A DNA stretch of 64,000 bases from Blastocatellia bacterium. Its GTDB lineage: Bacteria; Acidobacteriota; Blastocatellia; UBA7656. Below the pieces are notes generated by a model. It was given only the letters and a program-made list of their open reading frames with translations. It was not told the DNA's origin and ran no database searches. Positions 15,694-34,472 of the stretch are shown here, piece after piece (within the stretch, counting starts at the first letter, position 1; every line of letters starts with the position of its first letter). A program made the position numbers and the translations under genes. The stretch is taken from assembly GCA_963765495.1 (NCBI GenBank), contig CAVXWP010000007.1, forward strand, positions 1 to 64,000, in the 5' to 3' direction.

Positions 15694-15823
15694 TCGGCTT
15701 TGAGTTTTATCACGATAGGGGGCTGCGGCTCAAATCCGTACGTGCCTATTCACTTATTTTGAATACCTAGAGTCCTCTCCTCTTTCAAGTCGTTTGTCGA
15801 ATAGGGATACAGGGGAAAACCGA

Positions 15824-17869
15824 ATGAGATGTTCTTCTCCTATCTCGTATCTCGCAACCTTCTCCAAAAGTCTGTTCCCGAAATGCTGGCTCACATTGGC
15901 CTTGATCTTCGGATTGCTTTCCTGGCAACCCCTGAGCGCCGCTCAGTCAGCTCGCGCCCGCATCGCGATTGATGCCGGCAAGGTCGAAGGCCGGATAAGT
16001 CCTATGCTCTACGGTCAGTTCGCCGAGTTTATGTTCGAAGGAATCAAAGGCGGCTTGCACGCCGAATTGATCCGTAACCGAAGCTTCGAGGAACCGGCCA
16101 GTGTCACAGGTCTTTCGCGTTACTGGGAACGCTATCCCGACGACCGCAATGATGATTATGCAATATCTTTCGGATGGGATCAGACAGTCTCTTATCCGGT
16201 TCGCAATCGTTCGGAAAAAGATACGGTCGAGCACTCTCTCCGAATAGAGGCCGGTGACGGAGTAGTAGAGCCGCACGGCGTTTATCAAAGCCGCGTGCCT
16301 GTGCGGCAGGGAACAAGCTTCCACGGTTACCTCTGGCTTAAGTCTGCCGACTTTGCCGGACACCTGACCGTGTCGCTCGAAGCGGACTGGACAGGCGGTG
16401 AGATGTATGCGGCGACAGACATCAAAGGTATTGCCGGGGATTGGAAGAGATACGAATTTACGCTCACACCGTCAAAGAGCGACCCGCTTGCCCGTTTTGC
16501 CATTCTTGTGAAGGGACGCGGGCGGCTCTGGCTCGATCAGGTTTCGCTACTCCCCGGCGATGCCCAGGACGGCGTGCGCAAAGATGTTTATGAAAAGGTG
16601 AGGGTGTTACATCCGGCCTTTATCCGCTGGCCCGGCGGCAATGTGGCGCAGGATTATCACTGGCAGTGGGGCATCGGACCACGTGATGAACGCGTCACGT
16701 GGGTGAATCTGTCGTGGAAGAATGAGGCCGAGCCGAGCGATTTCGGCACCGACGAGTTTATCCGTTTCTGTCGCGACATCGGAGCCGAGCCTTCACTGAC
16801 GGTGAATGTCGAGGGGGGCGGCGCGACCGCCGAAGAAGCCGCCCGATGGGTGGAGTACTGCAACGGCCCGATGACATCTCCTTACGGCGCGATACGCGCT
16901 CGCAACGGACACCCGGAGCCTTACGGGGTCAGATACTGGGAGATCGGTAACGAGATATGGGGCGACTGGGTACGGGGCCATTCCGATGCCGAAACGTATG
17001 CGCGCAATTTCAATCGCTATTACGCGGCCATGAAACAGGTTGACCCGAATATTCAATTCATCGCCGTAGGCGATAACGATATGGAATGGAATCGCACGGT
17101 ATTGCGTCTGGCCGGTGAGCGCATCGATTTTCTGGCGATTCATCACTATTACGGCAGACGGGAGATGGCGGGCGACCCGCTCAATTTGATGGCGCGCCCG
17201 CTCTTTTACGAACGCTTTTATAAACAGGTCGGGCAGTTGATTCGCGAGATAGTTCCCAATCGAAAGATCAAGCTCAATATTAACGAATGGGGCCTGGATT
17301 TGCCGGAACGCCGACAGTACTCGATTGAATCGGCGCTTTACGGTGCGCGGCTGATGAATGTATTCGAGCGTTCAGGTGATCTGGTCGCGATGAGCGCGGT
17401 TTCCGATCTGATAAACGGCTGGCCGGGAGGCATCATTCAGGCGAGCAGACACGGTCTGTTTGTGACTCCAAACTATCTGGTCAATAAACTTTATAACACG
17501 CATCTGGGAGCGGAACGCCTCGCTTCTGTTGTCGAAAGCCCTGGATTTGACAGCAGCAGAGAAGGGAAAAGCGTGTCTTATCTGGATGCGGTTGTCAGCC
17601 GCACGTCTGACGGCAAACAGATTTTTATCAAGGCGGTCAATACCGATCCAGCGAGTCCCCTGCAAACGAGCATCGGCTTAACCGGAGTTCGAGTCGCCAC
17701 GCGCGCGCGGGTGGAAACCATTACGGCAGCCTCTCTCGAAAGCGTCGCGAGCTTCACGACGCCCGACGCGGTCTTCGTAAAAACGTCGGAGGTGAGCGCG
17801 GGCAGCAACTTCACAATTGATCTGCCAGCGCACTCCATCTCGGTGATTACGCTTGATGTGATTCGGTGA
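15824..17869 (+). CDS. Secreted GH51 alpha-L-arabinofuranosidase
   Basis: Signal peptide; 'LYGQFAE', 'IRWPGGN', 'FGTDEF', acid/base 'IGNE', nucleophile 'INEW'. Confidence 0.9.
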   Translation: MRCSSPISYLATFSKSLFPKCWLTLALIFGLLSWQPLSAAQSARARIAIDAGKVEGRISPMLYGQFAEFMFEGIKGGLHAELIRNRSFEEPASVTGLSRYWERYPDDRNDDYAISFGWDQTVSYPVRNRSEKDTVEHSLRIEAGDGVVEPHGVYQSRVPVRQGTSFHGYLWLKSADFAGHLTVSLEADWTGGEMYAATDIKGIAGDWKRYEFTLTPSKSDPLARFAILVKGRGRLWLDQVSLLPGDAQDGVRKDVYEKVRVLHPAFIRWPGGNVAQDYHWQWGIGPRDERVTWVNLSWKNEAEPSDFGTDEFIRFCRDIGAEPSLTVNVEGGGATAEEAARWVEYCNGPMTSPYGAIRARNGHPEPYGVRYWEIGNEIWGDWVRGHSDAETYARNFNRYYAAMKQVDPNIQFIAVGDNDMEWNRTVLRLAGERIDFLAIHHYYGRREMAGDPLNLMARPLFYERFYKQVGQLIREIVPNRKIKLNINEWGLDLPERRQYSIESALYGARLMNVFERSGDLVAMSAVSDLINGWPGGIIQASRHGLFVTPNYLVNKLYNTHLGAERLASVVESPGFDSSREGKSVSYLDAVVSRTSDGKQIFIKAVNTDPASPLQTSIGLTGVRVATRARVETITAASLESVASFTTPDAVFVKTSEVSAGSNFTIDLPAHSISVITLDVIR

Positions 17870-17901: not shown

Positions 17902-19935
17902 TTATTTAGCCGCTACGCCGACCCGCAATACCGTAAGCGAGTTAGGAGCAAAGCTGTATTTAAACTCATTTGATCCGGCGGCAAGCGATTGCTCTACTGG
18001 TGCGACTCGCATCGGTTCATCCAGACTGTTTTCGGCTTTGAGGTCACCAGTAATAACAAAAGCCTTGCCGGTCTTTTTGATCTGCTTCGCTCCCGCGAGG
18101 TTGATTTGAACCTCTCGCGGCGACGGAGAGATGTTGACTACTTTCAAAACCACTTCGCCGGTTCGCTCATCTATGGACGCGCTGGCGAAAAGATTGTCCT
18201 GCCCGTTCTTTTTAGAGTCTCCCAGAAGCACCGGCAGGATAGTTGTCCCGCGATTCACGCTGAACATTTTTTGCACGTAGTAATTAGGCGTGCCGTAGGA
18301 ACGAAGATTATCGAACCATATAAGATTCGGCGTCCACTGCCACCCCTCCACGTGCCCAAAGAGCGGCGCATAAGATGACATCGCGACTACATCGGCGTTG
18401 CGCTCAAGCCCGGTTATAAAGGCGGCCTCCGAAAGCGCGCACTCCCAGTTGTTGCGATTGTCAACGCTTGCAATCCCGACGCTTTGAGCCGCGTACTCGC
18501 CCGCGAAGACCTTCGGGCCGTTGCGCGGGTAGTCGTCATAACGACCGGCATTTTCTGGAAACCATTTCGGCGGCATGTAGTAATGCTCATCGACTAAGTC
18601 GGCATTCATTTCGCGTAATTTCGCCCACAGGAAATCGAATCGCTCTCCTTCGGGGGCGGGGCCTGCCGCCGAGACGAGTTTGATTTCGGGATGCTTTTCT
18701 TTAATGACTTTTGCAAATACCCGATAGCGTTCGATGTATTGCGGTCCCCACTGTTCGTTCCCTACGCCGATCATTTTCAGATTGAAGGGAGCGGGGTGTC
18801 CCATCTCTGCGCGCTTGCGTCCCCAGTTGCTTGTTTCGGGGCCGTTTGCGAACTCGATCAAATCCAGCGCGTCCTGAACGTAAGGGTCAAGCTCTTCGAC
18901 CGGGACCAGTTCACCCGTATTGAACTGGCAGGCCATGCCGCAATTTAGTATCGGCAGAGGTTCCGCGCCGATGTCTTCGCTCAACAGGAAATACTCGTAA
19001 AAGCCGAGACCGAATGACTGGTAGTAATCAGGAGTCAGACGGTGTTTGAATTCATAATTCCAGCGATTGACGAGCAGTCTCCGCTCATCCAGATCGCCTA
19101 TGGTCGTCTTCCACTGATAACGCCTGTCGAGAGTGCTTCCCTCTACAATGCACCCGCCGGGGAAACGCAAAAAACCGGGCTTGATGTCGTGGAGCAACTT
19201 TACAAGATCGGGGCGCAACCCGTTCTCGCGCATCTTCCAGGTTTGCTTAGGAAAAAGCGAGATGAAATCCAGATCAAGCGCGCCGCGATCTTCCACAAGC
19301 ACATTCAAATGAGCCTTGGCCTCGGTCCCGGTGGCACGAATGATTGAGCTATATTTCTTCCACTCGGATGTGATTCCCTCTATTTTAGTATGCCCTAAAC
19401 TCCCCCCGTTTGCGTCTTCCAGTTCGATGCGCAAGGCGAGCGGTCCATCCGAGGAATTTGAGTCGCTCTCAACACGCCGTGCCTGAACAGAGAAAGTGTA
19501 TTCGGCGTCTTTTTCGACGCCCATGCCGCGAAAGCCTTCGTTCACTACGCCAAAGCCTTTGCCCGCCGACTCTACTTTTATCCGCAGATAATGAGAATTT
19601 GGGATGTGAGTAACCGAACCCCGGTCGAGAATGTAAACCGCTCCTTTTGATTCGCCGCGATCAATCTGCTTCCAGCCCATCATCGGGTCCGGGAACTCAA
19701 ACGAGCGATTCTTCACACGTTCAGGATACAGCCCGCTGTCTGCGCCAAAATTTATATCCTCAAAGAACAGGCCGAACAGGGTAGCAGGTATCGGCGCTCC
19801 GGGTCTGTCTACCTGTACGGTGATGGCGCTGGTTTGAGCCGAGGCAAACTGCGCCTGCCCGATGATAAGAGAAACCATGCAGCCAAGCGCCAGAAATTTG
19901 ATCGAAAGGGCCCGCGCTGTTTTCGCTATTTTCAT
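17902..19935 (-). CDS. Secreted GH51 alpha-L-arabinofuranosidase
   Basis: Signal peptide; 'GLFFEDIN', 'LRFPGGC', 'GVGNEQWG', 'DEHYY', 'GEYA', 'SYAPL'. Confidence 0.93.
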   Translation of the reverse strand: MKIAKTARALSIKFLALGCMVSLIIGQAQFASAQTSAITVQVDRPGAPIPATLFGLFFEDINFGADSGLYPERVKNRSFEFPDPMMGWKQIDRGESKGAVYILDRGSVTHIPNSHYLRIKVESAGKGFGVVNEGFRGMGVEKDAEYTFSVQARRVESDSNSSDGPLALRIELEDANGGSLGHTKIEGITSEWKKYSSIIRATGTEAKAHLNVLVEDRGALDLDFISLFPKQTWKMRENGLRPDLVKLLHDIKPGFLRFPGGCIVEGSTLDRRYQWKTTIGDLDERRLLVNRWNYEFKHRLTPDYYQSFGLGFYEYFLLSEDIGAEPLPILNCGMACQFNTGELVPVEELDPYVQDALDLIEFANGPETSNWGRKRAEMGHPAPFNLKMIGVGNEQWGPQYIERYRVFAKVIKEKHPEIKLVSAAGPAPEGERFDFLWAKLREMNADLVDEHYYMPPKWFPENAGRYDDYPRNGPKVFAGEYAAQSVGIASVDNRNNWECALSEAAFITGLERNADVVAMSSYAPLFGHVEGWQWTPNLIWFDNLRSYGTPNYYVQKMFSVNRGTTILPVLLGDSKKNGQDNLFASASIDERTGEVVLKVVNISPSPREVQINLAGAKQIKKTGKAFVITGDLKAENSLDEPMRVAPVEQSLAAGSNEFKYSFAPNSLTVLRVGVAAK

Positions 19936-20062: not shown

Positions 20063-20065
20063 TTC

Positions 20066-21193
20066 TCATTTCGTCTTGCCGATCAGCCGTTTGATCAATT
20101 CCACTTCTTCGGCGCGATAGGGCGTGCCGTCGGTGCGAAATACTTCGTGAAACCAGACCGCCGGTTCGCGATCAATATAAGGCTGTCGCCAGGAATCCCA
20201 CGGCAGATAGGTTTGCGTCTTGCCTGCTACCAGTCCCCAGTTGATCGCCGCAACATTGTATCGTTTGGCGATGGGCAGCGACCCTTCGAATGTGCTCTTG
20301 TTGCCGCGAGCCATGTACTCGGTGCAGAGGATCGGGCGGTTGTAGCGCGTAAGCCACTTGATGCGCTTTTCAAATTCTTCCGGCGCATCATAGTTGTGAA
20401 ACGAAATTACATCCGACAAATAAATCTGCATCCGTTCCATCACCCCCATCTTTTCCGGGCTCGACCAGTCGCCTTTCCAGACGCCGCACGTCAAAGGCTG
20501 TTCGGCTCCCGCTTCGCGCGCCCACGCGAAAGCCTGCGGCAGCAACGCCAGCACGATTTCTACCTTGTCCTTTGGCTCCAGTTCGCCGTAGCTTCCCTGA
20601 TTCGTGTTGTCCGGCTCGTTCCAGATATCCCACGCAAGTATCCGCCCGTCTTTTGCAAATCGGCCGACCACGCCTTTTACATAGGCTTCAAGACGCGGGT
20701 ACTCGGCCGGGTCTTCGAGCGCGTGTGCGCCGGGGCTTTGCAGCCAGCCCGAGTTATGCACACCCGGTCGCGGCTCGTGCTGTTTGCCAAGCATGGGTTT
20801 CGGGTCCCAGACCGAATCGAACAGGACCAGCATCGGCCTGATATGATGCTTTGCCGCGATGCCGAGAAATGTGTCAAGGCGACGTTTGAAGCCTTCCGCA
20901 TCCTGTTTCCACAAGAGGTCGTGGAGAAAAACGCGCATGGTGTTCATCCCCAGACTCTCTGCCCAGCCCAGTTCCAAATCTATTCTTTTCGGGTCAAAGG
21001 TGTCGGCCTGCCACATCTCCAATTCATTGATCGCGCTCGCAGGCGTATAGTTGCTGCCAACCAGCCACCCTTGCTTGCTGTACCAGTCGTTTGCTTTTTG
21101 CTCCGACCACTTGGCCGAAGGCGCGGCCAGAACGAATCGGGCGAGGAGAAGAATGGCTATAAATACCGGCGCGGTTTTTCGCGTGATTGACAT
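20066..21193 (-). CDS. Secreted clan GH-A glycoside hydrolase (GH5-like, probably subfamily 13)
   Basis: Signal peptide; 'NTMRVFLH', acid/base 'WDIWNEP', 'SFHNY', nucleophile 'CTEYMAR'. Start at ATG 21193 with a GGAGG SD. Confidence 0.8.
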   Translation of the reverse strand: MSITRKTAPVFIAILLLARFVLAAPSAKWSEQKANDWYSKQGWLVGSNYTPASAINELEMWQADTFDPKRIDLELGWAESLGMNTMRVFLHDLLWKQDAEGFKRRLDTFLGIAAKHHIRPMLVLFDSVWDPKPMLGKQHEPRPGVHNSGWLQSPGAHALEDPAEYPRLEAYVKGVVGRFAKDGRILAWDIWNEPDNTNQGSYGELEPKDKVEIVLALLPQAFAWAREAGAEQPLTCGVWKGDWSSPEKMGVMERMQIYLSDVISFHNYDAPEEFEKRIKWLTRYNRPILCTEYMARGNKSTFEGSLPIAKRYNVAAINWGLVAGKTQTYLPWDSWRQPYIDREPAVWFHEVFRTDGTPYRAEEVELIKRLIGKTK

Positions 21194-21231
21194 GAATGTT
21201 TGGTCCTCCATCTTGAAAGGATGCGCGGGAA

Positions 21232-22272
21232 TTATTTATGCTCGCGCTCCGCCTTCTTGTAGTGAATGTCGCTTGCTGCTCGGAGTTCGGCGGCCTTCTC
21301 TTCGGCTAAAGTATCGCTCAGGAAGTTGCCGCCGCCGATCTCGGGTCCGGCCAGATACTTTAGCAGATTCGGTCGCCTGAGCGGCGGATGAAACTCTATG
21401 TGGAAGTGAAAACCACGGTACTCGCCTCCGTCGGTCGGAGCCTGATGCAGAGGCATGACATAGGGAAAGGGTATCTGCCAAAGATTATCAAATTTGATAA
21501 GCACCTGTCTGAGCACCGAAGTGAAATCGCGCAACTCGGTATCTGAGAGCGCCGCGATGCTTGGAAGCGTCTGTTTCGGCGCTACGAATACTTCGTAAGC
21601 ATAGCGCGCGAAGTATGGCATGAAGGCAATGGCTGTCTCGTTTTCACAGATGATGCGCCGCCCGTCCTGCTGTTCGGCGGCGAGGATATCTTGAAAGAGG
21701 ATGCGTCCCGTTTCCGAAAGATGTCTTTCGGAGACACGAGCCTCTGTCTCGATTGTCTTGAAAACGAAATTGGTGGCGTAAATCTGGCAGTGAGGATGCG
21801 GATTTGAAACGCCTACGGCCTCTCCTTTGTTCTCAAAGATCAGCACGTGGTTGATCTCGTCGCGGCTGCCGAGTTCTCGATACTGCTCCTGCCATACGCG
21901 CAATAATTCATTGATTTCGCGCGGCTCAAGTTCAGCAAGCGTCAGGTTGTGCCGGGGGCTGTAACAGACTACGCGAGCCTGTCCGAGCGCGGGCCGATTG
22001 CGATAAATCCCGATTGGTTTGTCCAGGTCGGTTGGCGCGTCTAAACTGACACACGGCAGATCGTTATCAAAGACGAATGTGCCGGTATAGTTTGCGTTTC
22101 GCTTCCCGCTCACGCGCTCGTTGCCCGGGCACAGGTAACAGTCGCTTACGTAATTCGATTCAGACTCTTCCGCGTGTTTGATAGTGCCGCCGTTCCACGG
22201 GCGACCTTGCCTGTGCGCCGCGACCATAACCCACTCCTCGCGAAGCGGATGCCATCTCTCTTCCCAAGCCAT
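21232..22272 (-). CDS. galT: GalT-family sugar-1-phosphate uridylyltransferase
   Basis: 'CYLCPGNER', 'FENKG', 'SNPHPHCQ' (HPH nucleophile), '[10 protein letters not shown]', 'HFHIEFHPP'. Start at ATG 22272. Confidence 0.93.
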
Positions 22273-22313
22273 TGATCCCTCCCTGAGCATTGAGTGACGA
22301 GCAAAAGCTGATT

Positions 22314-22431
22314 CGTGAAGCGTGATGCGATCTCTGATGCGTGATCCGTGATCCGTGACTGTCAGGCACATTGCTGTAAACAGGTACTTGCATATTTCAC
22401 GGATCACGCATCACTCTTCACGGATCACGCA
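22314..22431. repeat. Heptamer-arm palindromic element, core type 1 (inverted relative to 19948-20062)
   Basis: gtgactgtcaggcacattgctgtaaacaggtacttgcatatttcacggatcacg is the near reverse complement of the 19990-20042 core. Confidence 0.8.
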
Positions 22432-23415
22432 TTATTTCGCATATCCTTCCGGGTGCACCTGATGCCAGTCCCAGGCCGTGCGGATAATCGTTTCAAGATC
22501 GGGGTATTCAACCTCCCATCCGAGAATTTCTCTGGCTCTTGTGGCGTCGGCCACAAGCCGGGACGGATCGCCGGGGCGCGCTGTCTCGAATCTGGTTTCG
22601 ATCTCGCGCCCGGTCACGCGCCGCGCCGTCTCGATCACTTCCATCACCGAATACCCGTGACCGTTCCCCAGGTTGATGCGCTCGGACTCTCCTCCGTTTT
22701 GCAGATGCTCAAGCGCAAGCGTATGCGCCGAGCAGAGATCGCTCACGTGGATGTAGTCGCGGATGGCCGTTCCGTCCGGCGTCGGGTACTGATTGCCAAA
22801 GACCGAGACGTAAGGCCGCCTGCCCATCGCTGCAAACAACACATTCGGGATGAGGTGCGTCTCCGGTTCGTGATGTTCGCCGCGCTGCTCGGTTGCGCCC
22901 GATGCGTTGAAATACCTGAGCGCGACATATTTCAATCCGTAGGCGTAATCGTATGATGCGAGAATCTTTTCCATGAAGAGCTTTGTCCAGCCGTAGGGGT
23001 TGGCAGGTTGCTGCGGGTGCCGCTCGTCTATCGGAACGCGAACCGGCTCGCCGTAGGTCGCGCAGGTTGAAGAGAAGACAAATCTTTGCACTCCGGCCTC
23101 AAGCAAAGAATCGAGCAGCGCGATCCCCTGCCCGACGTTGTTTTCAAAGTACAGCTTCGGATCGCTCACCGATTCGCCTACATAGGCAAGCGCGGCAAAA
23201 TGTACGCACGCGTCAATCTCGTGATCCCGACAGATCGAGCTGACAAGTTCGCGGTCGCCTATGCGTCCCCTGTAAACCGTTGCGCCTTCGCCAAGCGCGT
23301 CTTCGTGCCCACGTGAAACGTTATCGAGCACAACCACACGCTCTCCCCTGTCGAGCAACCGATCAACCATTACGCTGCCGATGTAGCCCGCCCCACCCGT
23401 CACAAGAATCGCCAT
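22432..23415 (-). CDS. galE: GalE-family UDP-sugar 4-epimerase
   Basis: 'TGGAGYIGS', '[11 protein letters not shown]', 'FSSTCATYG', YxxxK 'YGWTK', 'LRYFNASGA', '[11 protein letters not shown]'. Confidence 0.93.
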
Positions 23416-23429
23416 AACGCTTTCTCCTA

Positions 23430-24920
23430 TCAGTGCTCTTTCGTGAGCTTCAAATGGCCGAAGACGCCCGCGCCCGGAGAAGAACCGGCAATGATGAGCG
23501 GTTGCCGCCCCGACTGTTCGGCATACCGGATCGCGACCGCTTCAATCGTCGGCCCCGCCGAGGCAAGGCCAAGTACGGCGACCGTCCCGCCGCTCCCGCC
23601 GCCTGTGATCTTCGCCCCATAAAGCCCGGTATCAGGTCCAGCCTCTCGAACCAGTTTCACAATCTCATCCGTGCCCGTTGAGCCAAGCCCGCAGGCCGAG
23701 TAGCTTTCGTGAGATTGAAACATCAATTCGCCTAATATGTTTGCCCGCGCCGCGCCCTGCCCCCTCTTGAGTATCTCCGCAAACGTGTTGACGCGGTGAT
23801 GCTCATAGATCGGATGCCGCGTCGCATCGTAAACAGGATAGCTCCGGTCAGGCGATACCGAGGTCACAGAATCGGTGATCCCCCGATACTCCGCAAGAAA
23901 CTCCGCACCCGACATTGTCTCGGGCAATCGCGCTGCAAAGGCCGCTTCAAACTCCTTCGGCGTAAGATTGGCGAGATAGCCTTTCCACCGAGGGTCATCA
24001 ATCAGGACGTGACCGGCGCTGCCCGACTCGCGGCAGGGCAGACCAGCCATAGCGGCAATCATGCGATAACCCATGAAGGCGGCTGTGCGAATCGTGCCGT
24101 AATCAGCGCCGCCTACCGAATGGCGAATCCCGGAATCTATCCCCCAGACGGCCAGATCGCGGGGCAGTTCTACTGCCTCTTTCAACTCGCCGGGCTGGCA
24201 CAGCAGCGCGAGCAGCCGGTCGGCCTCGCCGCAGGCCGAGGTCATCTGATCCATTACGCCGCACGGCGCGCCCGCGATCAGGTTCTCGACTCTCTGGCAT
24301 AAAAAAGCCATCTCGCGTGGCGAAATTTCAAGCCCGTAAGCCGCTGAGATTGCCTGCATGGTCGCCACTTCGAGCGAAGCCGAAGAACTGACGCCCTTGC
24401 CTTCGGGAACGGCTGAACTGATAAGTATATGCGCGCCGTTTTCAAAGACGCATCCTCGCTCGCGCATCAAGACCAGAAAAGCACCGGCTACGTAGGCCGC
24501 CCAGGTCTGCTCGACTCTGCCTGCGAAGCGCGCGCGCGCCGTGGCGTAGTCAACCGGGTCGCTCGATTCCCTGAAATCCTCCAGCGACATTTCAAACACG
24601 CGCACTCGTTCGTTCCGGTTGACAGGCAGGCTGACTATGCGGAGCCTGTCTTCTTTTTGAAGTTGAAGAGCCGTGTGCGTGGCGGCGTGGATTGGAATTT
24701 CGAGCACAAGCGAGCCTGAGTAATCGGCTATGCCCCCCATCAAATCCAGCCTGCCCGGCGCGCGCGTCACAATCAACTCTCGTTTATTGTCAAAGAACCC
24801 TCGAAGTAAAGATATCTCTTCCTCTTTGCCTTGCGAATGATCGGGCAGGCGGTTTAGCAACTCGATGAGGGCTGCCGTATCCGCCAGATCATGAGTTGAA
24901 CCGGATACGATTCTATACAC
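23430..24920 (-). CDS. GHMP sugar-1-kinase, L-arabinokinase (plant ARA1)-like
   Basis: '[21 protein letters not shown]', '[10 protein letters not shown]', '[10 protein letters not shown]', '[15 protein letters not shown]', '[11 protein letters not shown]'. GTG start at 24920 with a GGAG SD, overlapping the upstream stop. Confidence 0.88.
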
Positions 24921-25974
24921 GTCCGGCGCTCCCGGCTTCTGAATTTTCGAGCAGCCCTCTGCTGATAAGCGCCGCCTGCAACAGCGGCTCGATCTGAGCG
25001 CGAATCTGCGCGTTGGCATAACCTGCCCACGCTACATCGGGCTCGACCGAAAGCCGCGCATCGAGTGGTCCTCCGCCAATGCCGCACACCTCCACGCCCG
25101 CTTCACGCGCTATCAATTCGGTGCAAAGATCATAAGGGTGACAGCAGATGCCGAGCGCAAGCCCGCGCTGGCGCAATAGGTTTTCCATAAACGGGCGCAG
25201 GTCGGCGATGAAGCGGTCGTGGCCCGAGGCCAGTTCGTAAAGCTGGCCCCCGGTCGAAGCATACTGGTCTTCAAAACAATGCGCTTTCCCCGGACGCACC
25301 GGCCCAAGAGCGCCGCGCACGATCTCTTCGTCAATCGCCGCGAGTTCTTCACGCGCACCGGGGAAGAAACGCACTATCTGGCTGTATCCGTGCGCGATGG
25401 TAGCGACAGGCGAAGGGCGCAAGGGGATCGCTTTGCTTTCGCCCGTGTAGCGATTAAAGCGAACGGCCTCGGCACCCTCCCCTCTGACGGCCCACGCCAC
25501 ATCCGACAGGTGTTGTTTGACAAGCGGAATCTCGGTCTGGATCGCCATCACGATGTCGGCGAGCGAAGTCTCGTCGCCTCGATTCGGAGCCACTCCCGTC
25601 AGTATCCATCCGCTTCGCTTCTGATACATCAACCCGCGTGTGCCGTCTATCGGGTCTACGATGACGCGCCAGACGGCTTCCTCTGCGGACGCGCCGCGCG
25701 GCAACACGATCTGCCCTTCGGGCAAACCTTCGCCGATCAAAACTAGCGGGACCGACCGGGCAATCTCGCGTTCGAAAAAATCGATCAGCAACTCTTCGCT
25801 TATGCAGTCAACGGCGTAAATCGTATCGCCCTCTTCTTCGCGGGCTACGGCTGCGAGCGCCTCGACCGCCGAGCGCTCACAGGCTTCGATCACCGCGCCT
25901 CGAATTATTTCGTGCAACCGGCGCAGAGGTTCGAGCAGGTAGCGGGGATCATCCGTTGAAAAAGCAGTGGTCAT
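24913..25974 (-). CDS. Inositol-monophosphatase (FIG) family phosphatase
   Basis: 'IGEG', 'VDPIDGT' metal-binding motif, '[14 protein letters not shown]' (WD.AA...EAG-like). Confidence 0.8.
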
Positions 25975-26093: not shown

Positions 26094-27767
26094 TTATGCC
26101 AATTTTATCTGCAAGCGCGTGACCGATGCAGGCGCGAAGCGATAAACGAATGCGCCCGCGCCGACCTTGACCTGTTCGTTGCGAGGCTCGACCGTGTGCG
26201 GACTCTCAAACGTGTTGTGCGCGTGAACGTCGGGCTCGGCAAGCACTCGCGCTTCGGCGGATTCGACGCGAGCGCCTCGCACCGCGATCTCGGCCTCGCG
26301 CGATTCACTCATACTCGGGTTCGTCACCGTCACGGTCAATTGTTTTCCGTTCATTGACGCCGATCCGCTCAACCCCCAAAACTCGGCAGGCTTTCCGTTT
26401 CGCGTGTACCCGACCTGCGGCGCGCTGAAAACCGTCCGCACCGCCTGCGCTCCCATGTGCGGCATAAACATTTCGAAGATGTGATAGGTCGGCGTCAGTA
26501 TGAAACGTTCGCCGTCGGCCAGAAAAAGCGAATGCAGACAGTTGACCAGTTGCGCGACGTTCGCCATCACAACCTTGTCCGACTGCCGGTTGAATATGTC
26601 CAGCGAGATCGAGGCCACGAGCGCATCGCGCATCGTCTGTTGTTGCTCCAGCGTGTGTGAGAGCACAAGCTCGGTTCCCGGGCGATGCCACGACCCCCAC
26701 TCGTCCACTACGATTTTTGTTCGGTGGCGTCTGTCGTATTCGCCCATCACGGTCCAGTGCTTCTCGATAGCCTCATCTATCTGATCGGCGGCGCGCAGTA
26801 GCTCATAGTACTGCTCGGTGTCGAATTTCAAAGCGTCGCCTTTTGCATCGTTCCAGTCGTTGGTCCTGCCTCCCGCGACATTCCACGAATAGTGATGCAC
26901 AGACCACCCGTACATGCGGTCGAATGATCCCTCGCCTTTCTCGCGCATCTTGTCAAAGAAGCCGTGAGTCCAGTTGAGGTCTTCACTGCTTGGCCCGGCG
27001 GCCATGAATTTCAGAGGCACGCCGTAGCCCGGCACGGATGCAAGAAAGCGGCGGAACTCCTGCGCGTACTCTTCGGGCGTGAAGTTGCCGCCGCATCCCC
27101 ACGACTCGTTGCCTACGCCCCAGTACTCGACGCGGAAAGGGTCGCGGCTGCCCATTGGGCCGTTCGCACGCATATCCGCAAGCGTAGTGGCCCCGGCGGG
27201 CGCGTTGCAGTATTCGACCCAATGATAAAAATCTTGCGCGGTCAGGCCGCGCAGATTCGCCGCCAGATAAGGTTTTGCGCCGATCAGTTGGCAGAAACGC
27301 GCAAACTCATTCGTGCCAAACCAGTTCGGCTCTACGCGGGAAGTAGAATCGGGCGGGACTTTCGGGTTTGCTGCATCGGCCCAGAAATTTGTGCGGCGCG
27401 GACGTTTAGCCCTGTCGCCTATGCCGTCGCGCCAGTCATAACTGTCGGCGAAACATCCGCCGGGGTAGCGAATCACCGGGGCCTTGATGCGTTTCAATGC
27501 GTCAACGAGTTGATTGCGTATGCCGCCCGTATTCGGCACGCGAGAGTCTTCGCCAACCCAGATGCCGTCATAAACCACAGCGCCCAGGTGCTCGACAAAA
27601 TGGCCGTAGATGTTGGGGTTTATCGTGCCGATCTCCTCGCCTATCAGCACCTCGATACGCGAATCGGCGGCCCGCGCGGATTGCGCGAATGTGTGTGCGC
27701 GCCCGGCTATCAATCCCGCGCCACCGGCTATCGCTCCCTGCAAAAATGCGCGTCTTTCGATTTTCAT
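26094..27767 (-). CDS. Tat-exported GH51 alpha-L-arabinofuranosidase
   Basis: Tat motif 'ERRAFL'; 'IYGHFVEHLG', 'RYPGGCFAD', 'GNESWGCGG', 'VDEWG', 'MANVAQLVN'. Confidence 0.93.
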   Translation of the reverse strand: MKIERRAFLQGAIAGGAGLIAGRAHTFAQSARAADSRIEVLIGEEIGTINPNIYGHFVEHLGAVVYDGIWVGEDSRVPNTGGIRNQLVDALKRIKAPVIRYPGGCFADSYDWRDGIGDRAKRPRRTNFWADAANPKVPPDSTSRVEPNWFGTNEFARFCQLIGAKPYLAANLRGLTAQDFYHWVEYCNAPAGATTLADMRANGPMGSRDPFRVEYWGVGNESWGCGGNFTPEEYAQEFRRFLASVPGYGVPLKFMAAGPSSEDLNWTHGFFDKMREKGEGSFDRMYGWSVHHYSWNVAGGRTNDWNDAKGDALKFDTEQYYELLRAADQIDEAIEKHWTVMGEYDRRHRTKIVVDEWGSWHRPGTELVLSHTLEQQQTMRDALVASISLDIFNRQSDKVVMANVAQLVNCLHSLFLADGERFILTPTYHIFEMFMPHMGAQAVRTVFSAPQVGYTRNGKPAEFWGLSGSASMNGKQLTVTVTNPSMSESREAEIAVRGARVESAEARVLAEPDVHAHNTFESPHTVEPRNEQVKVGAGAFVYRFAPASVTRLQIKLA

Positions 27768-27802: not shown

Positions 27803-28528
27803 TTATTGTTTTGGCGTCTGCACATAAATTGAGTCCCAGTTGTTTTCCGTGGAGCCGAAGCCATACAGCATGACCTTGAAATCGGATGACAGACCGCGAA
27901 TCGTGCGTTCAAACCCGACCTCACGGTTTAACATGAAGAAAATCTGTTCGCCGCGCCGACCGATTCCAAGTCTAGGGTTTTTCTCTTTTGTGCCGAGCTT
28001 GCCGTTATCAAGCCGTATCAACTTGCCGTCTTCCGTCTGCCAGGCTTCGAACCTGCCGTCGCTTACCAGAATCCATTCGATGCGGTCCTTTGAATTGCCG
28101 TTGAAGAGCACTGTTAAAATGGCGTATCCCGGCGGAAACCCCCGCTCGCCCGGTTGAGGTGCGCGCATCCCAACCTTTGTGACCGTCGCCTCGACATAGA
28201 AGCGGTCGCCATGAAAAGTCTGCCTGCTTCTTACGCCGGAACGCGAGAGCCCCGCTCCGTGCATTCTCAGTTGATTATCCTTAACCTCGATCTTGCCGCC
28301 GCCGCCGCCTTCAAATGTATAAGTTTCCCATTTCGCCTCATCAAGCTGGTCGCCCTCAAAGTTGTCTCCCCATTCTTCGACAGCGGCCTGCGGCACGGCC
28401 TGTTCTTGCGAAGGCGCAGTTTGTTGAGCCGTTTGTTGAGCCGTTTGTTGAGCCGTCGCAATCGCCATCGTCGCGGCAAACGCGGCGAACAGAATAAACG
28501 GGCGTATGGTTGCGGCTAAGAATTTCAT
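27803..28528 (-). CDS. Secreted hypothetical protein, possible beta-sandwich/lectin-like fold
   Basis: Signal peptide, (AQQT)x3 linker encoded by 12-bp repeats, a 'WGDNFEGDQLDEAKW' start resembling LamG/ConA domains, and beta-rich composition. Confidence 0.7.
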   Translation of the reverse strand: MKFLAATIRPFILFAAFAATMAIATAQQTAQQTAQQTAPSQEQAVPQAAVEEWGDNFEGDQLDEAKWETYTFEGGGGGKIEVKDNQLRMHGAGLSRSGVRSRQTFHGDRFYVEATVTKVGMRAPQPGERGFPPGYAILTVLFNGNSKDRIEWILVSDGRFEAWQTEDGKLIRLDNGKLGTKEKNPRLGIGRRGEQIFFMLNREVGFERTIRGLSSDFKVMLYGFGSTENNWDSIYVQTPKQ

Positions 28529-28616: not shown

Positions 28617-30275
28617 TCAGAAGATCACATCGCTGAGTCGCCGCACGATTTCGCGCCGCTCGGTCTGTTCCTGCTCTTTTTGCGAATCGCTCAATCGCTT
28701 GAAAGTCGCAAGCGTAGCCTGCGCCTCGGCCGAACGTTTCTGCCGCGCATAGACTCTTCCAAGCTGGTAATAGGCTGCCGCGAGATTGGCGTCGAGCTTG
28801 ATTGCGCGCTCAAACTCGTGCGCCGCATCATTCAGGCGATTGGTGCGGGAATAGAGCTTTCCCAATTCCAGATGCGCCGGAGCAAATTCCGGCTCAAGCT
28901 CCACGGCGCGTTTCAGATGAGCCTCTATCTGCGCCGGGTCCGCGTCGGCCTGTCTGAGAAGCGCATCGGCGATAAGATAATCCACTATCCCAAGCTTTTC
29001 ATTTATCGCAAGCGCCCGCTTGTATCGCTTGATGGCCTCGTCATACTGACCTGTTTCTACATATGTCATCCCGAGATAGGCGTGTGCGGGGGCGAAATTC
29101 GGATCGAGCTCAATGGCGTGCGTGAGAGCCCTGGCCGCCTCGTCGTTCAGCCCTCCCTTGAAGTGAGCGATTCCGAGCGCGACCCACAACCGGGCCGAGC
29201 GCGGGAATAGCTCAAGCGCCTCTTTCAGCCGGATCACAGCCGCCCTCGGTGCCAGCGCATTCGTCAGCAGCAGGCCGTAGGTAAAGCGGTAATTCTCCGA
29301 CTGCGGGTCGCGCTGTATGGCAAGTCGCATGGCCGGAATCGCGTTCTCGATATGCCCGCTCTTTTCATAAACCGAAGCGAGCAAAACATAGATCGGCGCG
29401 GAATCAATCCCGCGAGCCACCGCAGATTCCAGCGTGCGCCCGGCTGCCGGGATGTCGCCCGACGCGAGATAGGCTTTCGCAAGTCGCAGAATCGTCTCCG
29501 TATTCGAAGGGTCGAGGCTTGAGGCTGCGCCGAGTTCCGTCACCGCTTCCTTCACAAGCCCGGCTTCCAGAAGCGCGCTGCCCAGTTCGGCGCGTGATGC
29601 GGCGGAGGCGGTCGTCTTCTTGTCTGCGCCCGCGAGACGGTCCGAGTATCCGCTGAAATATTTAGCGGCGGCCTCGTTGTCTTTGAGGCGCAGGGCGACG
29701 ACTATAATTGCGCGGGCGATCTCGGCATCGGGCGCGAGCGCGTAAGCGCGTTCAAACATCTCTTTCGCCGCGCGAAAGCCTTCGGGCGTGCCTTCTGAAA
29801 AGCGAATCTGCGCCAGGTTGATGAGCGCGCTCGGCTGGTTTTTATCAATCTTCAACGATGCTTCAAACCGCGCGGCCGCCTCTTTCGAGCGACCGAGTTT
29901 GAGCAGAACCGCGCCGTAGTTATTCTGAGCAGATGGTGAATTCGCATCGCTACGGGCGGCAGCGGCGAATTGGCGTTCGGCTTCCGCCAGATCGCCTTCA
30001 CGGTCGGCAATCACGCCGAGGTAAGTATGCGCGGTCACATCATCGGGTTTCAGGGCGAGCACCTGTTGAAAGAGGCTACGCGCGGACGATGAGTCATCTC
30101 TTTCAAGCGCCGCCAGACCCTCGGCAATTAGCCGCTCGGTCTGCCCTGCGCCCGAATCGGTCTGGCCGGAAGAAGACGGCAGAGTGATTGTCGCCCCCAG
30201 ACTTCCCGCTCCTGCCGCTGTGATAAAGAGGGTTATCAGTATAAACCTCAGAGGTTTTGACTTCGTGACACTCAT
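28617..30275 (-). CDS. Secreted tetratricopeptide repeat protein
   Basis: Signal peptide and many TPR units (e.g. 'AHTYLGVI', 'AHAYLGMTY', 'AYYQLGRVY'). Start placed at ATG 30275. Confidence 0.88.
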   Translation of the reverse strand: MSVTKSKPLRFILITLFITAAGAGSLGATITLPSSSGQTDSGAGQTERLIAEGLAALERDDSSSARSLFQQVLALKPDDVTAHTYLGVIADREGDLAEAERQFAAAARSDANSPSAQNNYGAVLLKLGRSKEAAARFEASLKIDKNQPSALINLAQIRFSEGTPEGFRAAKEMFERAYALAPDAEIARAIIVVALRLKDNEAAAKYFSGYSDRLAGADKKTTASAASRAELGSALLEAGLVKEAVTELGAASSLDPSNTETILRLAKAYLASGDIPAAGRTLESAVARGIDSAPIYVLLASVYEKSGHIENAIPAMRLAIQRDPQSENYRFTYGLLLTNALAPRAAVIRLKEALELFPRSARLWVALGIAHFKGGLNDEAARALTHAIELDPNFAPAHAYLGMTYVETGQYDEAIKRYKRALAINEKLGIVDYLIADALLRQADADPAQIEAHLKRAVELEPEFAPAHLELGKLYSRTNRLNDAAHEFERAIKLDANLAAAYYQLGRVYARQKRSAEAQATLATFKRLSDSQKEQEQTERREIVRRLSDVIF

Positions 30276-30320
30276 GTTTCGTGTTTTGTCAGCTGCCCCT
30301 CTATTATAGCCGCAAGCCTT

Positions 30321-30373
30321 CAAAAACAAACGGTGCAGAGGAAATTCCCACCCATTCGCCTCCGCACCGTTTG
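30321..30373 (-). terminator. Stem-loop followed by a U-tract downstream of the TBDR
   Basis: caaacggtgcagagg ... cctccgcaccgtttg inverted repeat, followed by TTTTT on the minus strand. Confidence 0.65.
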
Positions 30374-30392: not shown

Positions 30393-33300
30393 TTAGAAAA
30401 GAAATCTTAAACCGACCTGTATGCGACGCGGCTGCTCGGGGTCGTTGAATCGACTGGATTGACCGAAGATGGCCAGATTGTTCAGGTCTACTGCCGGTAA
30501 GAGGAAACGCCCCCGGTTGAACGCGTTGAAGAAATCGACCCGAAATTCAATCGCGGTCGTCTCTGTGATGCGCGTCTTCTTGAGGATGTTGAAATCTTCG
30601 GCGTAGAAGGGCTGTCCGCGCAGGCTGCTGTAAGTAGGCGCGGCAGTGCCGAAGAACCGCGTCGGATCGGAATAGAAAGCCCTGTAAGCCGCCGAGCCGA
30701 TGTCTCCGGCTGTGAAGCCTCCGCCGTAGTCGGGCGGGCGCGAGAACGCGTCCGGGTTCAGATATTGATACCTTATCCCCGTGGCCGGATCGTCTGTGTA
30801 AAACGGCTCTCCCGTGATGTTGGGTCGCAGGTTGCCGCCAAATCCGATCAGGTCGAGAAAATCTCTGCTGCCGCCGGAGATAAAAGGAACCAGAAGCGGA
30901 CCCTGACGATAACGCTGGACCGCCGATACCTGCCAGCCGCCTACCAGCCGGTCTACCGCGCCGCCCTGATTCAGAAATCGCCTGCCCTTTCCAAAAGGCA
31001 ATTCGATCAGATAATTGATCACAAGCGAGTGCGGCACGATGTTTGGCGACGGCGTGCGGAGCGATTTTCGATCATAGGGATTTTGCACAACTCCGGTGAT
31101 CGGAGTGTCCCCGAACAGGTCTTCGGCTGCGTCCGTGAGCAGCTTTGCGAAAGTATACGAGACGCCGATTTGCATACCCTGCGCGAAACGGCGCTGAAGG
31201 TTGAGTTTTAGCGCGTTATAAAAACTCTGCCCCTGACTCTCAAGATGCTCGGTTATGCGACCGTATTGCGGGAACGGTTTCAGGGATTGAGCCACCGTTC
31301 CGTTAAAACCGGGGAAGACCGCCGCGTTGTTTGCGGGCAGGGTCACGCCTACGCTCTGAGCATAGGCTCGCTGCGCTCCGGTCACATCGGCGAGCGGCAA
31401 TTGCAGGAACGCGTTTCCGAGCTTGAGGGCCTCGAGCGGCAAGGCGTTTAGCGGGCTGAAGTTTGACCGCAACCGGGTTCCCTTGCTTCCTACATACGAG
31501 ACGGCGGCTACGAAATTGCCCGGCAGTTCGCGCTGGATTTCGAGGCTGTATTGCGCCGTGCGACCTATCTTGAAGTTTCGATCAAAGCCTTCGACATCCG
31601 CGCCGATAAACTGGCTTGTCGGATCGGGCGTAGGCAGGACCGGGTAGTTGCTGAGTCTGATGAAAGCGTCGAAACCGAAATTGATGTTGGCTCCGCCCTG
31701 CACGGAAAATCCCGCCTGCCCGCCGCGCCCGAAATCGTTGTAGAGCAACGGAGCGTAGTAGAGGCCGTAGCCGCCGCGCACAACCGTCTTGTCATTGACC
31801 GAGTAAGCGAATCCGAACCTCGGCGAGAAGTTGGAATAGTCGGGTTTGATCAACCCTCTGTAAGGCGAGGTCGGTCCGAAATCGGTGCCCGGAGGACCGG
31901 CAAGCGCGCCGAGCCGCCCGCCTGCATCCGGGTTTGGCACAAACTTGTCAAAGCCCCGGTAAAGGTCTTTGTGCTCGACTCGCGGATATGGAATGTCATA
32001 ACGGATGCCGATGTTGACCGTGAGTTTCTGAGTGACCTTTATGTCATCCTGAGCAAAGAAGGTCGGCTCGAAGAAGCGGAAGCCCGGATCGATCGATTGC
32101 ACGGTGGCAAAGGAAAATTCGGGCGCGCCTGTGATAAGACTGGCGATGGGCCAACCCTGCCGGAACCCATCGCCGTTTGATGTCTGGTTGCTGATGAAAT
32201 TGAAATTGCCGCCAAGATCAAAGTGGTTGGAATCGTTCAACTGCTGCCATCTTGTCTCAGCGCCAAACTTGAACGTATGTTTCCCGCGTACCCACGTCAC
32301 GAAATCGGTAAGCTGAACGGCGTTGTCGCCATCCTGATTATCGAAGAACGTAGACCCGCCCGGCTGATAAGCGCGCGGGTCGGGCGAGGTCACAGGGTCG
32401 CCGACCAGGGGGAAACCTATGAGCGGAAGCGCAAGATTCTGCGTGGCGTTTGCCGGTAAACCTATCGTCGTCGGGCTTATGTTCCTTGTGAAATTTCGGT
32501 TCTGTACGAAAGACCGCGTAAAGCCCGCGTTGAAGTGATTGAGCAGCGTGGGGCTGAAAGTGAAATCGTCTTGCAGGCGATAATATTGCGAGTGGAACAC
32601 CTGTCTGAACGAACCTTGCTGAACCCACGGCTCAGGAAAACGCGGGAAAGCGCCCTGGATTTTTGTCTGGCTGCGGTAGGTGGAACTGAATGCGATCTGG
32701 TGTCTATCCGAGATTACGAAATTGACCTTCTCGGCGTAGTAGTTGGTTCTGGTCGGTCTTCCGCTCGTCGCGAGGTAGTTGTGAAAGACGCCTTCGCTTG
32801 TCGGCAGCGGAAAAAGCTGATTGATGATGTTAAACCCTACGGGGTCAATTACTGATTGACCCTGCGCGTTTTTGTAAAGGTCGAGGCGATTGCCGGGAAT
32901 CGCGGGACGATTACAGCACGGCACGGTGTTGTCAAAGATTTGAACCGGCCCGCCGAAAAATCCGAGCACGTACGGATCGGTCAACAATTCAGAGAAATCA
33001 CCCGCGCGCATCTTAACCGTCGGGACGCTTACGGGTACTGTTTCGCTCTGATCGAGACGATAGCCACCGTAGTTGAAAAAGAAGAAAGCGCGGTCCTTGA
33101 AACTCTTTAGCTTCGGATGCCAACCGTCAAGGTAGGGCAGATAGATGGGACCGCCTACGCTGAATCCGTAATCGTGCTGGCGGTCAAGCGATTTCTCAAT
33201 CCCTGTCAGCCGATTGAGGTCGTTGTTGGCGTTCAATGCTTCATTGCGGAGAAACTCGTATGCTTCGCCGTGAAAATCATTGCCGCCCGATTTGATCGTA

Positions 33301-34070: not shown

Positions 34071-34201
34071 TGGTGCCTCCTGAAAGCTCAACAAACCCGC
34101 TGCCGGTCTGTTTTCATAAGAAACGCTTAATCGCCGGATGGTAAAGTCGCCCTGCGCGACAAAACCTGTAAGATCCGTCTCGACCCTGAAAAGCTCTCAA
34201 A

Positions 34202-34414: not shown

Positions 34415-34472
34415 GTCTTTTCCTTCGTCGCTAATCATTGAAGAGAGCCGAGAGTCGTGTTATTGATTGACG

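Follow-up and report, generated by a model that had tools for sequence, protein, structure and literature searches.

A cassette of four genes in the genome of a Blastocatellia bacterium (Acidobacteriota; assembly GCA_963765495.1) probably encodes a Leloir-like route for L-arabinose, in which the sugar would be converted to xylose through nucleotide-sugar intermediates and handed on to xylose isomerase (XylA) and xylulokinase (XylB). The DNA analysed, referred to here as the window, is the stretch from position 1 to 64,000 of contig CAVXWP010000007.1 (C7) of this genome, which comprises 7.30 Mb in 17 contigs and is 97.94% complete. The cassette lies on the minus strand, and a check of the open reading frames (ORFs) gave the order, from 5′ to 3′, phosphatase, GHMP kinase, GalE and GalT. 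These genes encode an IMPase/FBPase-superfamily phosphatase of 353 residues (24913..25974), which we propose to be an α-D-xylose-1-phosphate phosphatase; an ARA1-type GHMP sugar-1-kinase of 496 residues (23430..24920), the proposed L-arabinokinase; a GalE-family UDP-hexose/pentose 4-epimerase of 327 residues (22432..23415), which would interconvert UDP-L-arabinose and UDP-xylose; and a GalT of a distinct subfamily with 346 residues (21232..22272), the proposed uridylyltransferase between L-arabinose 1-phosphate and UDP-xylose.

An earlier, sequence-only reading of this DNA had described four co-oriented genes in a locus with arabinan-directed hydrolases. They are present as described, between GH51 genes, with two start codons corrected. 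The kinase ORF spans 23430–25019, and the database protein starts at a GTG codon at 24920, giving 496 residues; with this start, the gene overlaps that of the phosphatase (24913) by 8 nt. The GalT ORF spans 21232–22407, and both homologues and the alignment with the E. coli enzyme point to an ATG at 22272 as its likely start, which gives 346 residues. Kinase and GalE genes are separated by 14 nt.

In the proposed route, secreted and periplasmic enzymes of glycoside hydrolase (GH) family 51, together with GH43 and related hydrolases, would free L-arabinose from arabinan. Import would be carried out by a CUT2-type ATP-binding cassette (ABC) system, which is encoded in the same cluster in relatives and on contig C1 in the window genome, and a GalM-type mutarotase would provide the right anomer. 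The ARA1-type kinase would then form β-L-arabinopyranose 1-phosphate, GalT would move UMP from UDP-xylose to this product to give UDP-L-arabinose and α-D-xylose 1-phosphate, and GalE would regenerate UDP-xylose by C4 epimerisation of UDP-L-arabinose, which completes a catalytic cycle. Since a mutase would find no free primary hydroxyl on a pentopyranose 1-phosphate, the IMPase/FBPase-like phosphatase would hydrolyse xylose 1-phosphate to xylose, which xylose isomerase and xylulokinase would convert to xylulose 5-phosphate, at a net cost of 2 ATP per arabinose. Sequence and genome context establish the enzyme families, the kinship of the kinase to ARA1, its co-inheritance with the GalT subfamily and the physical linkage of both to xylA/xylB, an importer and arabinan hydrolases; we infer all substrate specificities, the direction in which the pathway runs and what the phosphatase does. 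A Leloir-type conversion of arabinose to xylose had been suggested by the sequence-only reading, and the genomic predictions made with it, all except the epimerase motif, now lend it support in silico.

An ARA1-type kinase in the cassette

Judged by its sequence, the kinase is no galactokinase (GalK) but a bacterial relative of the L-arabinokinase of plants (ARA1). It matches the Pfam families GHMP_kinases_N, GHMP_kinases_C and GalKase_gal_bdg above cut-off (70.2, 26.5 and 25.8 bits, respectively). Against the galactokinase model TIGR00131 it reaches 144 bits, under the cut-off of 226.65, and it falls far under the cut-offs of all PRK galactokinase models. A separate canonical galK gene, anticipated in the sequence-only reading, was found on contig C4 (12928–14058; 387.8 bits), where it stands alone beside ThiC and radical-SAM (KamA-like) genes; its product is 29% identical to the cassette kinase.

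About 120 plant proteins of about 870–1100 residues match the kinase, with 44–51% identity over 92–100% of the query. Those named L-arabinokinase or ARA1 are 46–51% identical over 99–100% of the kinase (E 1e-132 to 1e-140). The 496 residues of the bacterial protein correspond to the C-terminal half of plant ARA1 (about 980–1000 residues), and the N-terminal glycosyltransferase-like domain is absent. Passages of two papers describe the phosphorylation of L-arabinopyranose to L-arabinopyranose 1-phosphate by plant ARA1 (PMC5897480; PMC12281597).

The kinship extends to the sugar site. The motif there begins APGRLD[LV] in all eight plant sequences compared; the whole stretch fits three of five other bacterial sequences, and the core GRLDL[ML]GGIADYSG is present in five of five bacterial kinase sequences. 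The GalK of the same genome and four neighbouring GalKs have APGRVNLIGEHTDYN in place of the ARA1 motif, and the GalK sugar-binding signature GRVNLIGEHTDY does not fit the window kinase, which has the ARA1-type motif. Three further motifs divide ARA1-like from GalK sequences in the same way. A maximum-likelihood tree of 19 sequences separates an ARA1-like group, plant and bacterial, from GalK with support of 100/100, with both branches long and the root arbitrary. The departure from the GalK type that had been read from the DNA was thus seen in model scores, motif and tree alike, and the kinase and epimerase motifs quoted at that time were found in the window proteins. We propose that the kinase phosphorylates L-arabinose at C1.

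An AlphaFold2 model of the kinase (predicted local distance difference test, pLDDT, 85) has a GalK-like fold. The closest solved relative is a 498-residue protein deposited as ‘AbGHMP’ (PDB 9ulx/9uly; E 1e-179, 601.8 bits, query residues 35–526). No mention of its name was found in the open-access full texts searched, and its kinase activity may already have been characterised. The kinase has at least 8000 candidate relatives, and the automatic names given to bacterial homologues by JGI are ‘L-arabinokinase’ and ‘galactokinase’ by turns.

As a separate observation, the 44–51% identity of the stand-alone bacterial kinases to the C-terminal half of the plant enzyme points to an origin of plant ARA1 by fusion of such a kinase with a glycosyltransferase-like domain, or to a transfer of the kinase between plants and bacteria, a relation for which the unrooted tree gives no direction.

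A GalT subfamily that accompanies the kinase

GalT scores 305 bits against TIGR00209 (cut-off 102) and aligns with E. coli GalT (PDB 1hxq) at E 2.7e-74. The HPH motif, the CxxC motif and the histidine of SPxH are kept; we take these to be the nucleophile (HPH) and the zinc-site cysteines and histidine. The C-terminal loop VRKFMVGYEMLAETQRD of the E. coli enzyme, which presumably contacts the hexose of UDP-glucose and UDP-galactose, is replaced by a different stretch in the window GalT. This replacement loop differs by at most one substitution in all aligned GalTs of related loci, except in the second GalT of a single locus (L037). That locus has both GalT types, and its canonical GalT with the E. 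coli-type loop adjoins a canonical GalK.

We searched 251 genomes of the class and sorted the GalT matches into tiers of 59–82% identity (E ≤1e-100), 36–45% identity (the canonical type) and weak HIT-like similarity. The cluster type occurs in 94 of the 251 genomes, and 92 of these also have the kinase. The exceptions, two genomes with GalT and no kinase (G174, G231) and three with the kinase and no GalT (G225, G227, G229), are all assemblies of 350–1390 contigs. On these alignments and counts, GalT is a distinct subfamily that is co-inherited with the kinase, and it would accept L-arabinose 1-phosphate and UDP-xylose.

GalE scores 398 bits against TIGR01179 (cut-off 262.3), and its best PDB relatives are the ordinary GalEs 8wxk and 2c20. 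A second GalE of the genome, on contig C5, is 46% identical to the cluster GalE. All 21 of the cluster GalEs compared keep the two motifs quoted for the epimerase and the C5 copy departs from them, a contrast that falls short of demonstrating pentose specificity. A review reports UDP-xylose/UDP-L-arabinose epimerase activity for the Arabidopsis GalE-family enzymes UGE1 and UGE3 (PMC5897480); by analogy, it is plausible that the cluster GalE interconverts the same two nucleotide sugars.

Conserved gene neighbourhoods

To describe the setting of the kinase in relatives, 80 related loci were kept out of 551 kinase relatives in species-representative genomes. Most come from metagenome-assembled genomes (MAGs) of Blastocatellia or Pyrinomonadaceae, and some from MAGs labelled KSB1, Latescibacterota, Planctomycetota or Anaerolineae. 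Neighbouring ORFs were clustered, and recurrent families were named with Pfam and NCBIfam and recounted with tblastn. At 43 of the 80 loci, at least 5 kb of sequence is available on both sides of the kinase (full-flank loci).

GalT is present at 37 of the 43 full-flank loci (59 of all 80), the phosphatase at 33 (57 of 80), both together at 31, and GalE at 18 (25 of 80). The genes for GalT, phosphatase and GalE lie on the kinase strand in 141 of 141 cases across the 80 loci. This arrangement is far beyond chance. Neither GalT nor the phosphatase was found at four full-flank loci (L034, L069, L086, L087).

The other recurrent neighbours are catabolic. XylA (TIGR02631, 530 bits against a cut-off of 447) occurs at 17 of the 43 full-flank loci and 20 of all 80; XylB (TIGR01312, 571 bits against 380) at 17 and 23; and one or the other at 23 of the 43. 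A CUT2 sugar ABC importer is encoded at 24 of 43 and 36 of 80 loci, and a GalM-type mutarotase at 15 of 43. GH51 enzymes are present at 16 full-flank loci (23 of 80), GH127 at seven and GH43 at four. At least one of these three families occurs at 19 of the 43, in keeping with the association of the cassette with arabinan enzymes that had been proposed for the window. One locus (L082) brings most of these elements together, in the order TonB-dependent receptor (TBDR), TPR protein, GH51, GalT, phosphatase, kinase, GalE, ABC binding protein, ABC ATPase, mutarotase, ABC permease, XylB, XylA and a GH5-like hydrolase. The TBDR–TPR–GH51 order recurs in about 10 loci, and 10 of the 80 loci have a TBDR homologue upstream of the cassette. 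That XylA and XylB are physically linked to an arabinokinase–GalT–GalE set, with arabinofuranosidases around it, argues more strongly than any other single finding for xylose as the product.

At two loci (L069, L075), the kinase directly follows a rhamnose-type set consisting of an aldolase–SDR fusion, a TIM-barrel isomerase, an FGGY kinase and a DUF7790 protein. GalT stands beside the kinase in L075, and an S10-peptidase-like gene follows the kinase. This set suggests a combined use of pectin side-chain sugars.

Arabinose and xylose genes across genomes

The kinase occurs in 95 of the 251 class genomes. A search for L-arabinose isomerase (araA, PF02610) gave no match in the window genome and none in any of the 251; the control search was positive in five of 14 reference genomes. 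For araD, the best match in the window genome reaches 34.6 bits (cut-off 389), and for ribulokinase the best match is the xylulokinase itself, at 70.5 bits (cut-off 583). The absence of araBAD on which the sequence-only reading depended thus holds for the genome at these cut-offs. In a sample of 301 genomes of the phylum, 16 have araA, 12 have the kinase and none has both, and two families (f36, f37) hold genomes of each kind; about 0.6 shared genomes would be expected by chance, so this non-overlap is consistent with alternative routes and not decisive. The window genome encodes a single protein of the IlvD/Edd family (PF00920), which argues against an IlvD-type oxidative arabinose route and leaves other oxidative variants.

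If xylose is the product, kinase-positive genomes need to be able to use xylose, a prediction that could fail. Of the 95 kinase-positive genomes, 89 gave a match for xylose isomerase, of class I in 77 (E ≤1e-80) and of class II above cut-off in 12. Among the 156 kinase-negative genomes, 30 have the class I enzyme; class II was searched for in kinase-positive genomes only, and the contrast is descriptive, since the genomes are related. The window genome has xylAB, as had been expected, with both genes on contig C6 (the two are found inside the cluster itself in relatives). Its XylA (C6, 103197–104363) and XylB (C6, 128087–129556) are 77% and 50% identical to those of L082. Its ABC system (C1, 430023–433714) is 82, 69 and 68% identical to the parts encoded in L082, and a mutarotase lies further along the same contig (C1, 439940–441079; 61% identical).

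The phosphatase

The phosphatase is more divergent than its partners. It reaches 26.2 bits against Pfam PF00459 (Inositol_P; cut-off 27) over residues 38–121 only, and it has no NCBIfam match and no sequence match in the PDB. PF00459 is precomputed for nearly all of its homologues, whose names in the sources are generic only; at least 8000 candidate relatives exist. An AlphaFold2 model built from 34 sequences is of moderate quality (pLDDT 66.3, predicted TM-score 0.72). Its best Foldseek matches are FBPases (E 2.4e-8, TM 0.5–0.6), followed by SuhB/IMPases and histidinol-phosphate phosphatase. Residues E82, D107-P-I-D110-G-T112 and D282, which we take to be the metal ligands of the superfamily, are invariant or nearly so in the 34 sequences, with DPIDGT in all of them.

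A match to this protein (IMP-like, E ≤1e-30) was found in 113 of the 251 class genomes, including 94 of the 95 with the kinase. Two subfamilies make up these matches. An orthologue (61–81% identity) is present in 59 genomes, 53 of them kinase-positive, with fragments in three more kinase-positive genomes. A second subfamily (40–46% identity) is the sole match in 50 genomes, 38 of them kinase-positive. The second subfamily lies between GalT (59–60% identical) and the kinase (47–50%) in four of four loci (L125–L128), and its unlinked copies are 64–77% identical to these clustered ones.

At two loci without an IMP-like gene, a gene of the ComB-type 2-phosphosulfolactate phosphatase family lies upstream of GalT (L090, 1888–2619; L093, 4142–4873; PF04029, 136 bits for the L093 copy). 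These loci come from MAGs labelled Latescibacterota and ‘uncultured bacterium’, and the ComB-type gene may stand in for a needed phosphatase as a non-orthologous replacement. No obvious substitute phosphatase was seen among the neighbours of four kinase loci lacking GalT or the IMP-like gene (L052, L064, L086, L026). The neighbours of these four loci include a PL11 rhamnogalacturonan lyase, GH39 and proteins of no assigned function.

The sequence-only reading had placed a phosphatase in the cassette. It does adjoin the kinase in relatives; its uniformity was overestimated, with two subfamilies and an orthologue in 56 of 95 kinase-positive genomes. The chemical case for a phosphatase is good, given that xylopyranose 1-phosphate offers a mutase no primary hydroxyl; this protein would hydrolyse xylose 1-phosphate, and this is the weakest step of the pathway.

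Objections and alternative explanations

Several findings weigh against the conversion of arabinose to xylose by this cassette. No score sets the epimerase apart from an ordinary GalE, and the route requires that a GalT accept pentose substrates. The route also costs one ATP more than AraBAD. The window genome has xylA and xylB, as well as the genes of the ABC importer and of the mutarotase, at sites unlinked to the cassette. The genome has a canonical GalK and no E. coli-type GalT (besides the cluster GalT there is only a 27%-identical HIT-like copy at C9, 875876–876904, with 105 bits against a cut-off of 102), so galactose metabolism may be a second task of the cluster GalT and GalE, or their actual one. 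Xylose isomerase is missing from six kinase-positive genomes, three of them at least 93% complete (G082, 100%; G048, 96%; G152, 93%) and three less so (G189, 85%; G239, 78%; G229, 73%). The genomes are related and hence not independent samples, which inflates the weight of the co-occurrence counts, and an unpublished genome (G245) is among the positives of the class counts. The presence of the phosphatase orthologue in only 56 of the 95 kinase-positive genomes makes its step the least secure. Of the 39 others, 38 have the second subfamily only and one (G229) has neither. The tie between phosphatase and kinase is not strict, as six genomes without the kinase carry the orthologue and 12 carry the second subfamily. 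Eight stand-alone copies of the second subfamily (L110–L117) have no pathway gene nearby; the two such neighbourhoods examined are unrelated to each other, the first containing beta-lactamase-like and enoyl-CoA hydratase genes and the second a gene for a GntR regulator. These copies lend no independent support to the proposed role.

The cassette could instead serve an anabolic salvage, in which L-arabinose is recycled to UDP-L-arabinose, and through GalE to UDP-xylose, for cell glycans, the phosphatase and xylose genes being separate matters. The kinase is the bacterial counterpart of a plant enzyme that serves salvage in the sections of PMC5897480 that treat it, a GalT with UDP-glucose as donor would give UDP-arabinose directly, and the lack of linkage to xylA and xylB in the window genome fits as well. 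We nevertheless regard salvage as unlikely: no glycosyltransferase or polysaccharide-export gene lies beside the cassette, either in the window or among the recurrent neighbour families of relatives, where hydrolases, importer, mutarotase, XylA and XylB recur instead; the conserved phosphatase would have no role; and araA is absent throughout the class despite plentiful arabinofuranosidases. It is distinctly unlikely, in our estimate, that the first three steps run as proposed while the IMPase/FBPase-like protein does another job, such as sugar-phosphate detoxification or the hydrolysis of another substrate, and a different enzyme clears xylose 1-phosphate. Its patchy distribution in kinase-positive and kinase-negative genomes would fit such a job, as would the moderate model, whose nearest folds are FBPases acting on a ketose 1-phosphate ester and not on an anomeric phosphate. 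Against this stand the overlap with the kinase gene in the window, the position between GalT and kinase in most loci, which the second subfamily shares, the presence of either subfamily in 94 of 95 kinase-positive genomes, and the different phosphatase family that takes the position in L090 and L093.

An ordinary or dual galactose Leloir operon, in which the kinase would phosphorylate arabinogalactan-derived galactose, either as an additional galactokinase or as a sugar-1-kinase of broad range, is improbable. GalT and GalE do pass the curated galT and galE models, the stand-alone GalK has no E. coli-type GalT to work with, GH42 genes occur in five of the 80 related loci, and JGI calls many kinase homologues ‘galactokinase’. 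The kinase itself, however, lies below the galactokinase cut-off and carries the ARA1 sugar-site motif, the GalT subfamily tracks this kinase and not GalK, and in L037 the cluster GalT coexists with a canonical GalT–GalK pair. The phosphatase and XylA/XylB would be superfluous for galactose, and phosphoglucomutase is not among the recurrent neighbour families of the related loci. Still more remote, to the point of being highly improbable, is another galacto-configured sugar without the normal C6 hydroxymethyl group, D-fucose for example. The loss of the GalK Glu-His pair from the sugar site would fit any substrate altered at C5 or C6; the close kinship to plant L-arabinokinase, the arabinan-specific hydrolases around the cassette and the linkage to XylA/XylB, sensible only for a pentose product, all speak for arabinose. 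The Leloir-like conversion of L-arabinose to xylose thus remains the reading we prefer.

The surrounding locus

Family annotation of the window covers the stretch before 49436, leaving out the ORFs of 49436–64000; araA, araB and araD are absent from the ORFs annotated, in line with what had been reported for the window. The arabinan-directed surroundings described earlier, three GH51 genes and a GH43 gene, are likewise present, as three GH51-like genes and one GH43 gene.

Directly upstream of the cassette lies a GH51 α-L-arabinofuranosidase gene (26094..27767, minus strand; Alpha-L-AF_C, 147 bits; NCBIfam ArfA, 198 bits, below cut-off), a position kept in relatives. It is preceded by genes on the same strand for a secreted protein of 241 residues (27803..28528; no Pfam or NCBIfam match), a TPR protein paired with the outer-membrane receptor (28617..30329; Pfam TPR families) and a TonB-dependent-type outer-membrane beta-barrel with a CarboxypepD_reg domain (30393..34094; OMP_b-brl_4, 594 bits), which is likely an oligosaccharide importer. 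Downstream of the cassette follow, again on the minus strand, a secreted GH5-like (clan GH-A) hydrolase of 381 residues (20066..21211; Pfam Cellulase, a weak 30.9 bits) and an ASD1-type GH51 α-L-arabinofuranosidase (17902..19935; ASD1_dom, 196 bits; Alpha-L-AF_C, 128 bits). With the exception of two genes, the locus is a co-directional block running from the TonB-dependent protein through TPR protein, 241-residue protein, GH51, cassette and GH5-like hydrolase to GH51. At one end stands a divergent GH51-like arabinofuranosidase gene (15794..17869, plus strand; Alpha-L-AF_C, 77 bits; ASD1_dom, 45.5 bits), and at the other a GH43 hydrolase gene of the arabinanase/arabinofuranosidase family (34467..35486, plus strand; Glyco_hydro_43, 176 bits) with the gene of a DeoR-family sugar-phosphate-sensing regulator (35515..36306, minus strand; DeoRC, 164 bits; HTH_DeoR, 62 bits). 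The latter is a candidate regulator of the locus, and in L048, L052, L068 and L099 a homologue is likewise encoded close to the cassette.

The GH5-like gene (20066–21211) follows GalT after 20 nt. Its product is 72–77% identical to homologues in 10 of the 80 related loci, mostly placed between the cassette and a GH51 gene, and may be an arabinan- or arabinogalactan-directed enzyme. The 241-residue protein (27803–28528) has a QQTA repeat after its signal peptide, and in L057, L065, L067 and L081 homologues with 52–70% identity occupy the same position, flanked by the TPR gene and GH51.

A scan of 17500–36500 for promoters and terminators was uninformative, with 11 promoter-like hits (shuffled mean 8.6) and 15 terminator-like hits (shuffled 22.1). 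The stretch is present in one DNA run from a soil metagenome, and no RNA run is listed. Elsewhere in the window, a 575-residue ORF without Pfam match (41486–43213, plus strand) lies between pheS (40342–41367) and pheT (43210–45258), overlapping the start of pheT by 4 nt. A phage-type integrase gene near the window start (875–2053) and, close to it, a kdpABC operon with KdpD-like sensor genes (4952–12556) are unrelated to the cassette.

Significance and relation to known systems

L-arabinose is a major plant cell-wall sugar, and its bacterial catabolism is known from the AraBAD isomerase route and from oxidative routes. In the open-access full texts, which leave most subscription journals and supplements beyond reach, we found no description of a bacterial route made up of arabinokinase, GalT, GalE and phosphatase. 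One candidate for an earlier description, PMC5507952, was set aside, as the parts of it available cover oxidative arabinose and ordinary Leloir pathways. The enzyme families, the Leloir logic and the characterised plant relative of the kinase are already known, and a close homologue of the kinase has been studied (9ulx). New, if true, would be the use of Leloir logic for bacterial pentose catabolism, a GalT subfamily tied to the pathway and a phosphatase exit into the xylose pathway. The kinase is also present in MAGs labelled KSB1, Latescibacterota and Planctomycetota. With slightly less assurance than we have in the pathway itself, we think that the ARA1-type kinase, new GalT subfamily, GalE, new phosphatase and XylA/XylB exit represent a further, widespread nucleotide-sugar route for L-arabinose in bacteria.

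Such a route would give abundant soil Acidobacteria a third arabinose logic, a UDP-sugar cycle with C4 epimerisation and a second ATP spent on xylose entry. A large share of them would use it for arabinose, given the kinase in 95 of 251 class genomes, none with araA, and it would fill an annotation gap in arabinofuranosidase-rich genomes that seem to lack an arabinose pathway. Functions would be assigned to the kinase and phosphatase relatives, which form two large subfamilies without names. The enzymes could be used to make UDP-L-arabinose and pentose 1-phosphates, and the compact cassette could enable arabinose use by xylose-using production strains. The plant arabinose-salvage kinase would be joined to a bacterial catabolic family with which ARA1 shares its kinase domain.

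Of the established arabinose routes, the AraA/AraB/AraD and oxidative (Azospirillum-type) pathways have the same substrate and an arabinofuranosidase setting in common with the proposed one, and the isomerase route also ends in xylulose 5-phosphate. That bacteria have an oxidative L-arabinose pathway is described in part of PMC5507952. In contrast to genomes with these routes, the window genome lacks araA, has araD and ribulokinase matches under cut-off and encodes one IlvD/Edd dehydratase, and the intermediates of the cassette would be nucleotide sugars.

A precedent for the hydrolysis of an anomeric sugar 1-phosphate is the plant L-galactose-1-phosphate phosphatase VTC4, of the IMPase family. 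Unlike VTC4, the window phosphatase barely reaches the IMPase model of Pfam and has a fold nearer to FBPases, and no close sequence kinship between the two is detectable.

The nearest counterpart of the first step is the plant salvage of L-arabinose by ARA1, the UDP-sugar pyrophosphorylase USP and the UDP-xylose 4-epimerases MUR4 and UGE1/3. Its first enzyme is homologous to the cassette kinase (46–51% identity, identical sugar-site motif), and, in the portions of PMC5897480 that describe it, it shares L-arabinose 1-phosphate and the interconversion of UDP-L-arabinose and UDP-xylose by a GalE-superfamily enzyme. The bacterial kinase differs from plant ARA1 in lacking the N-terminal domain of about 480 residues (496 against about 990 residues). 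Activation would be carried out by a GalT-type uridylyltransferase, whereas plants use a pyrophosphorylase (USP), and the purpose would be catabolic, with an exit through the phosphatase and XylA/XylB, not glycan synthesis. With the Leloir pathway of D-galactose, the cassette would share an anomeric kinase, UMP exchange and C4 epimerisation of a UDP-sugar, as well as the GalM-type mutarotase found at 15 of 43 full-flank loci. It departs from that pathway in its ARA1-type kinase, which fails the GalK model, and in a separate GalT subfamily with a remodelled loop; and its sugar 1-phosphate would be hydrolysed, not mutated, so that the free sugar re-enters metabolism via XylA and XylB.

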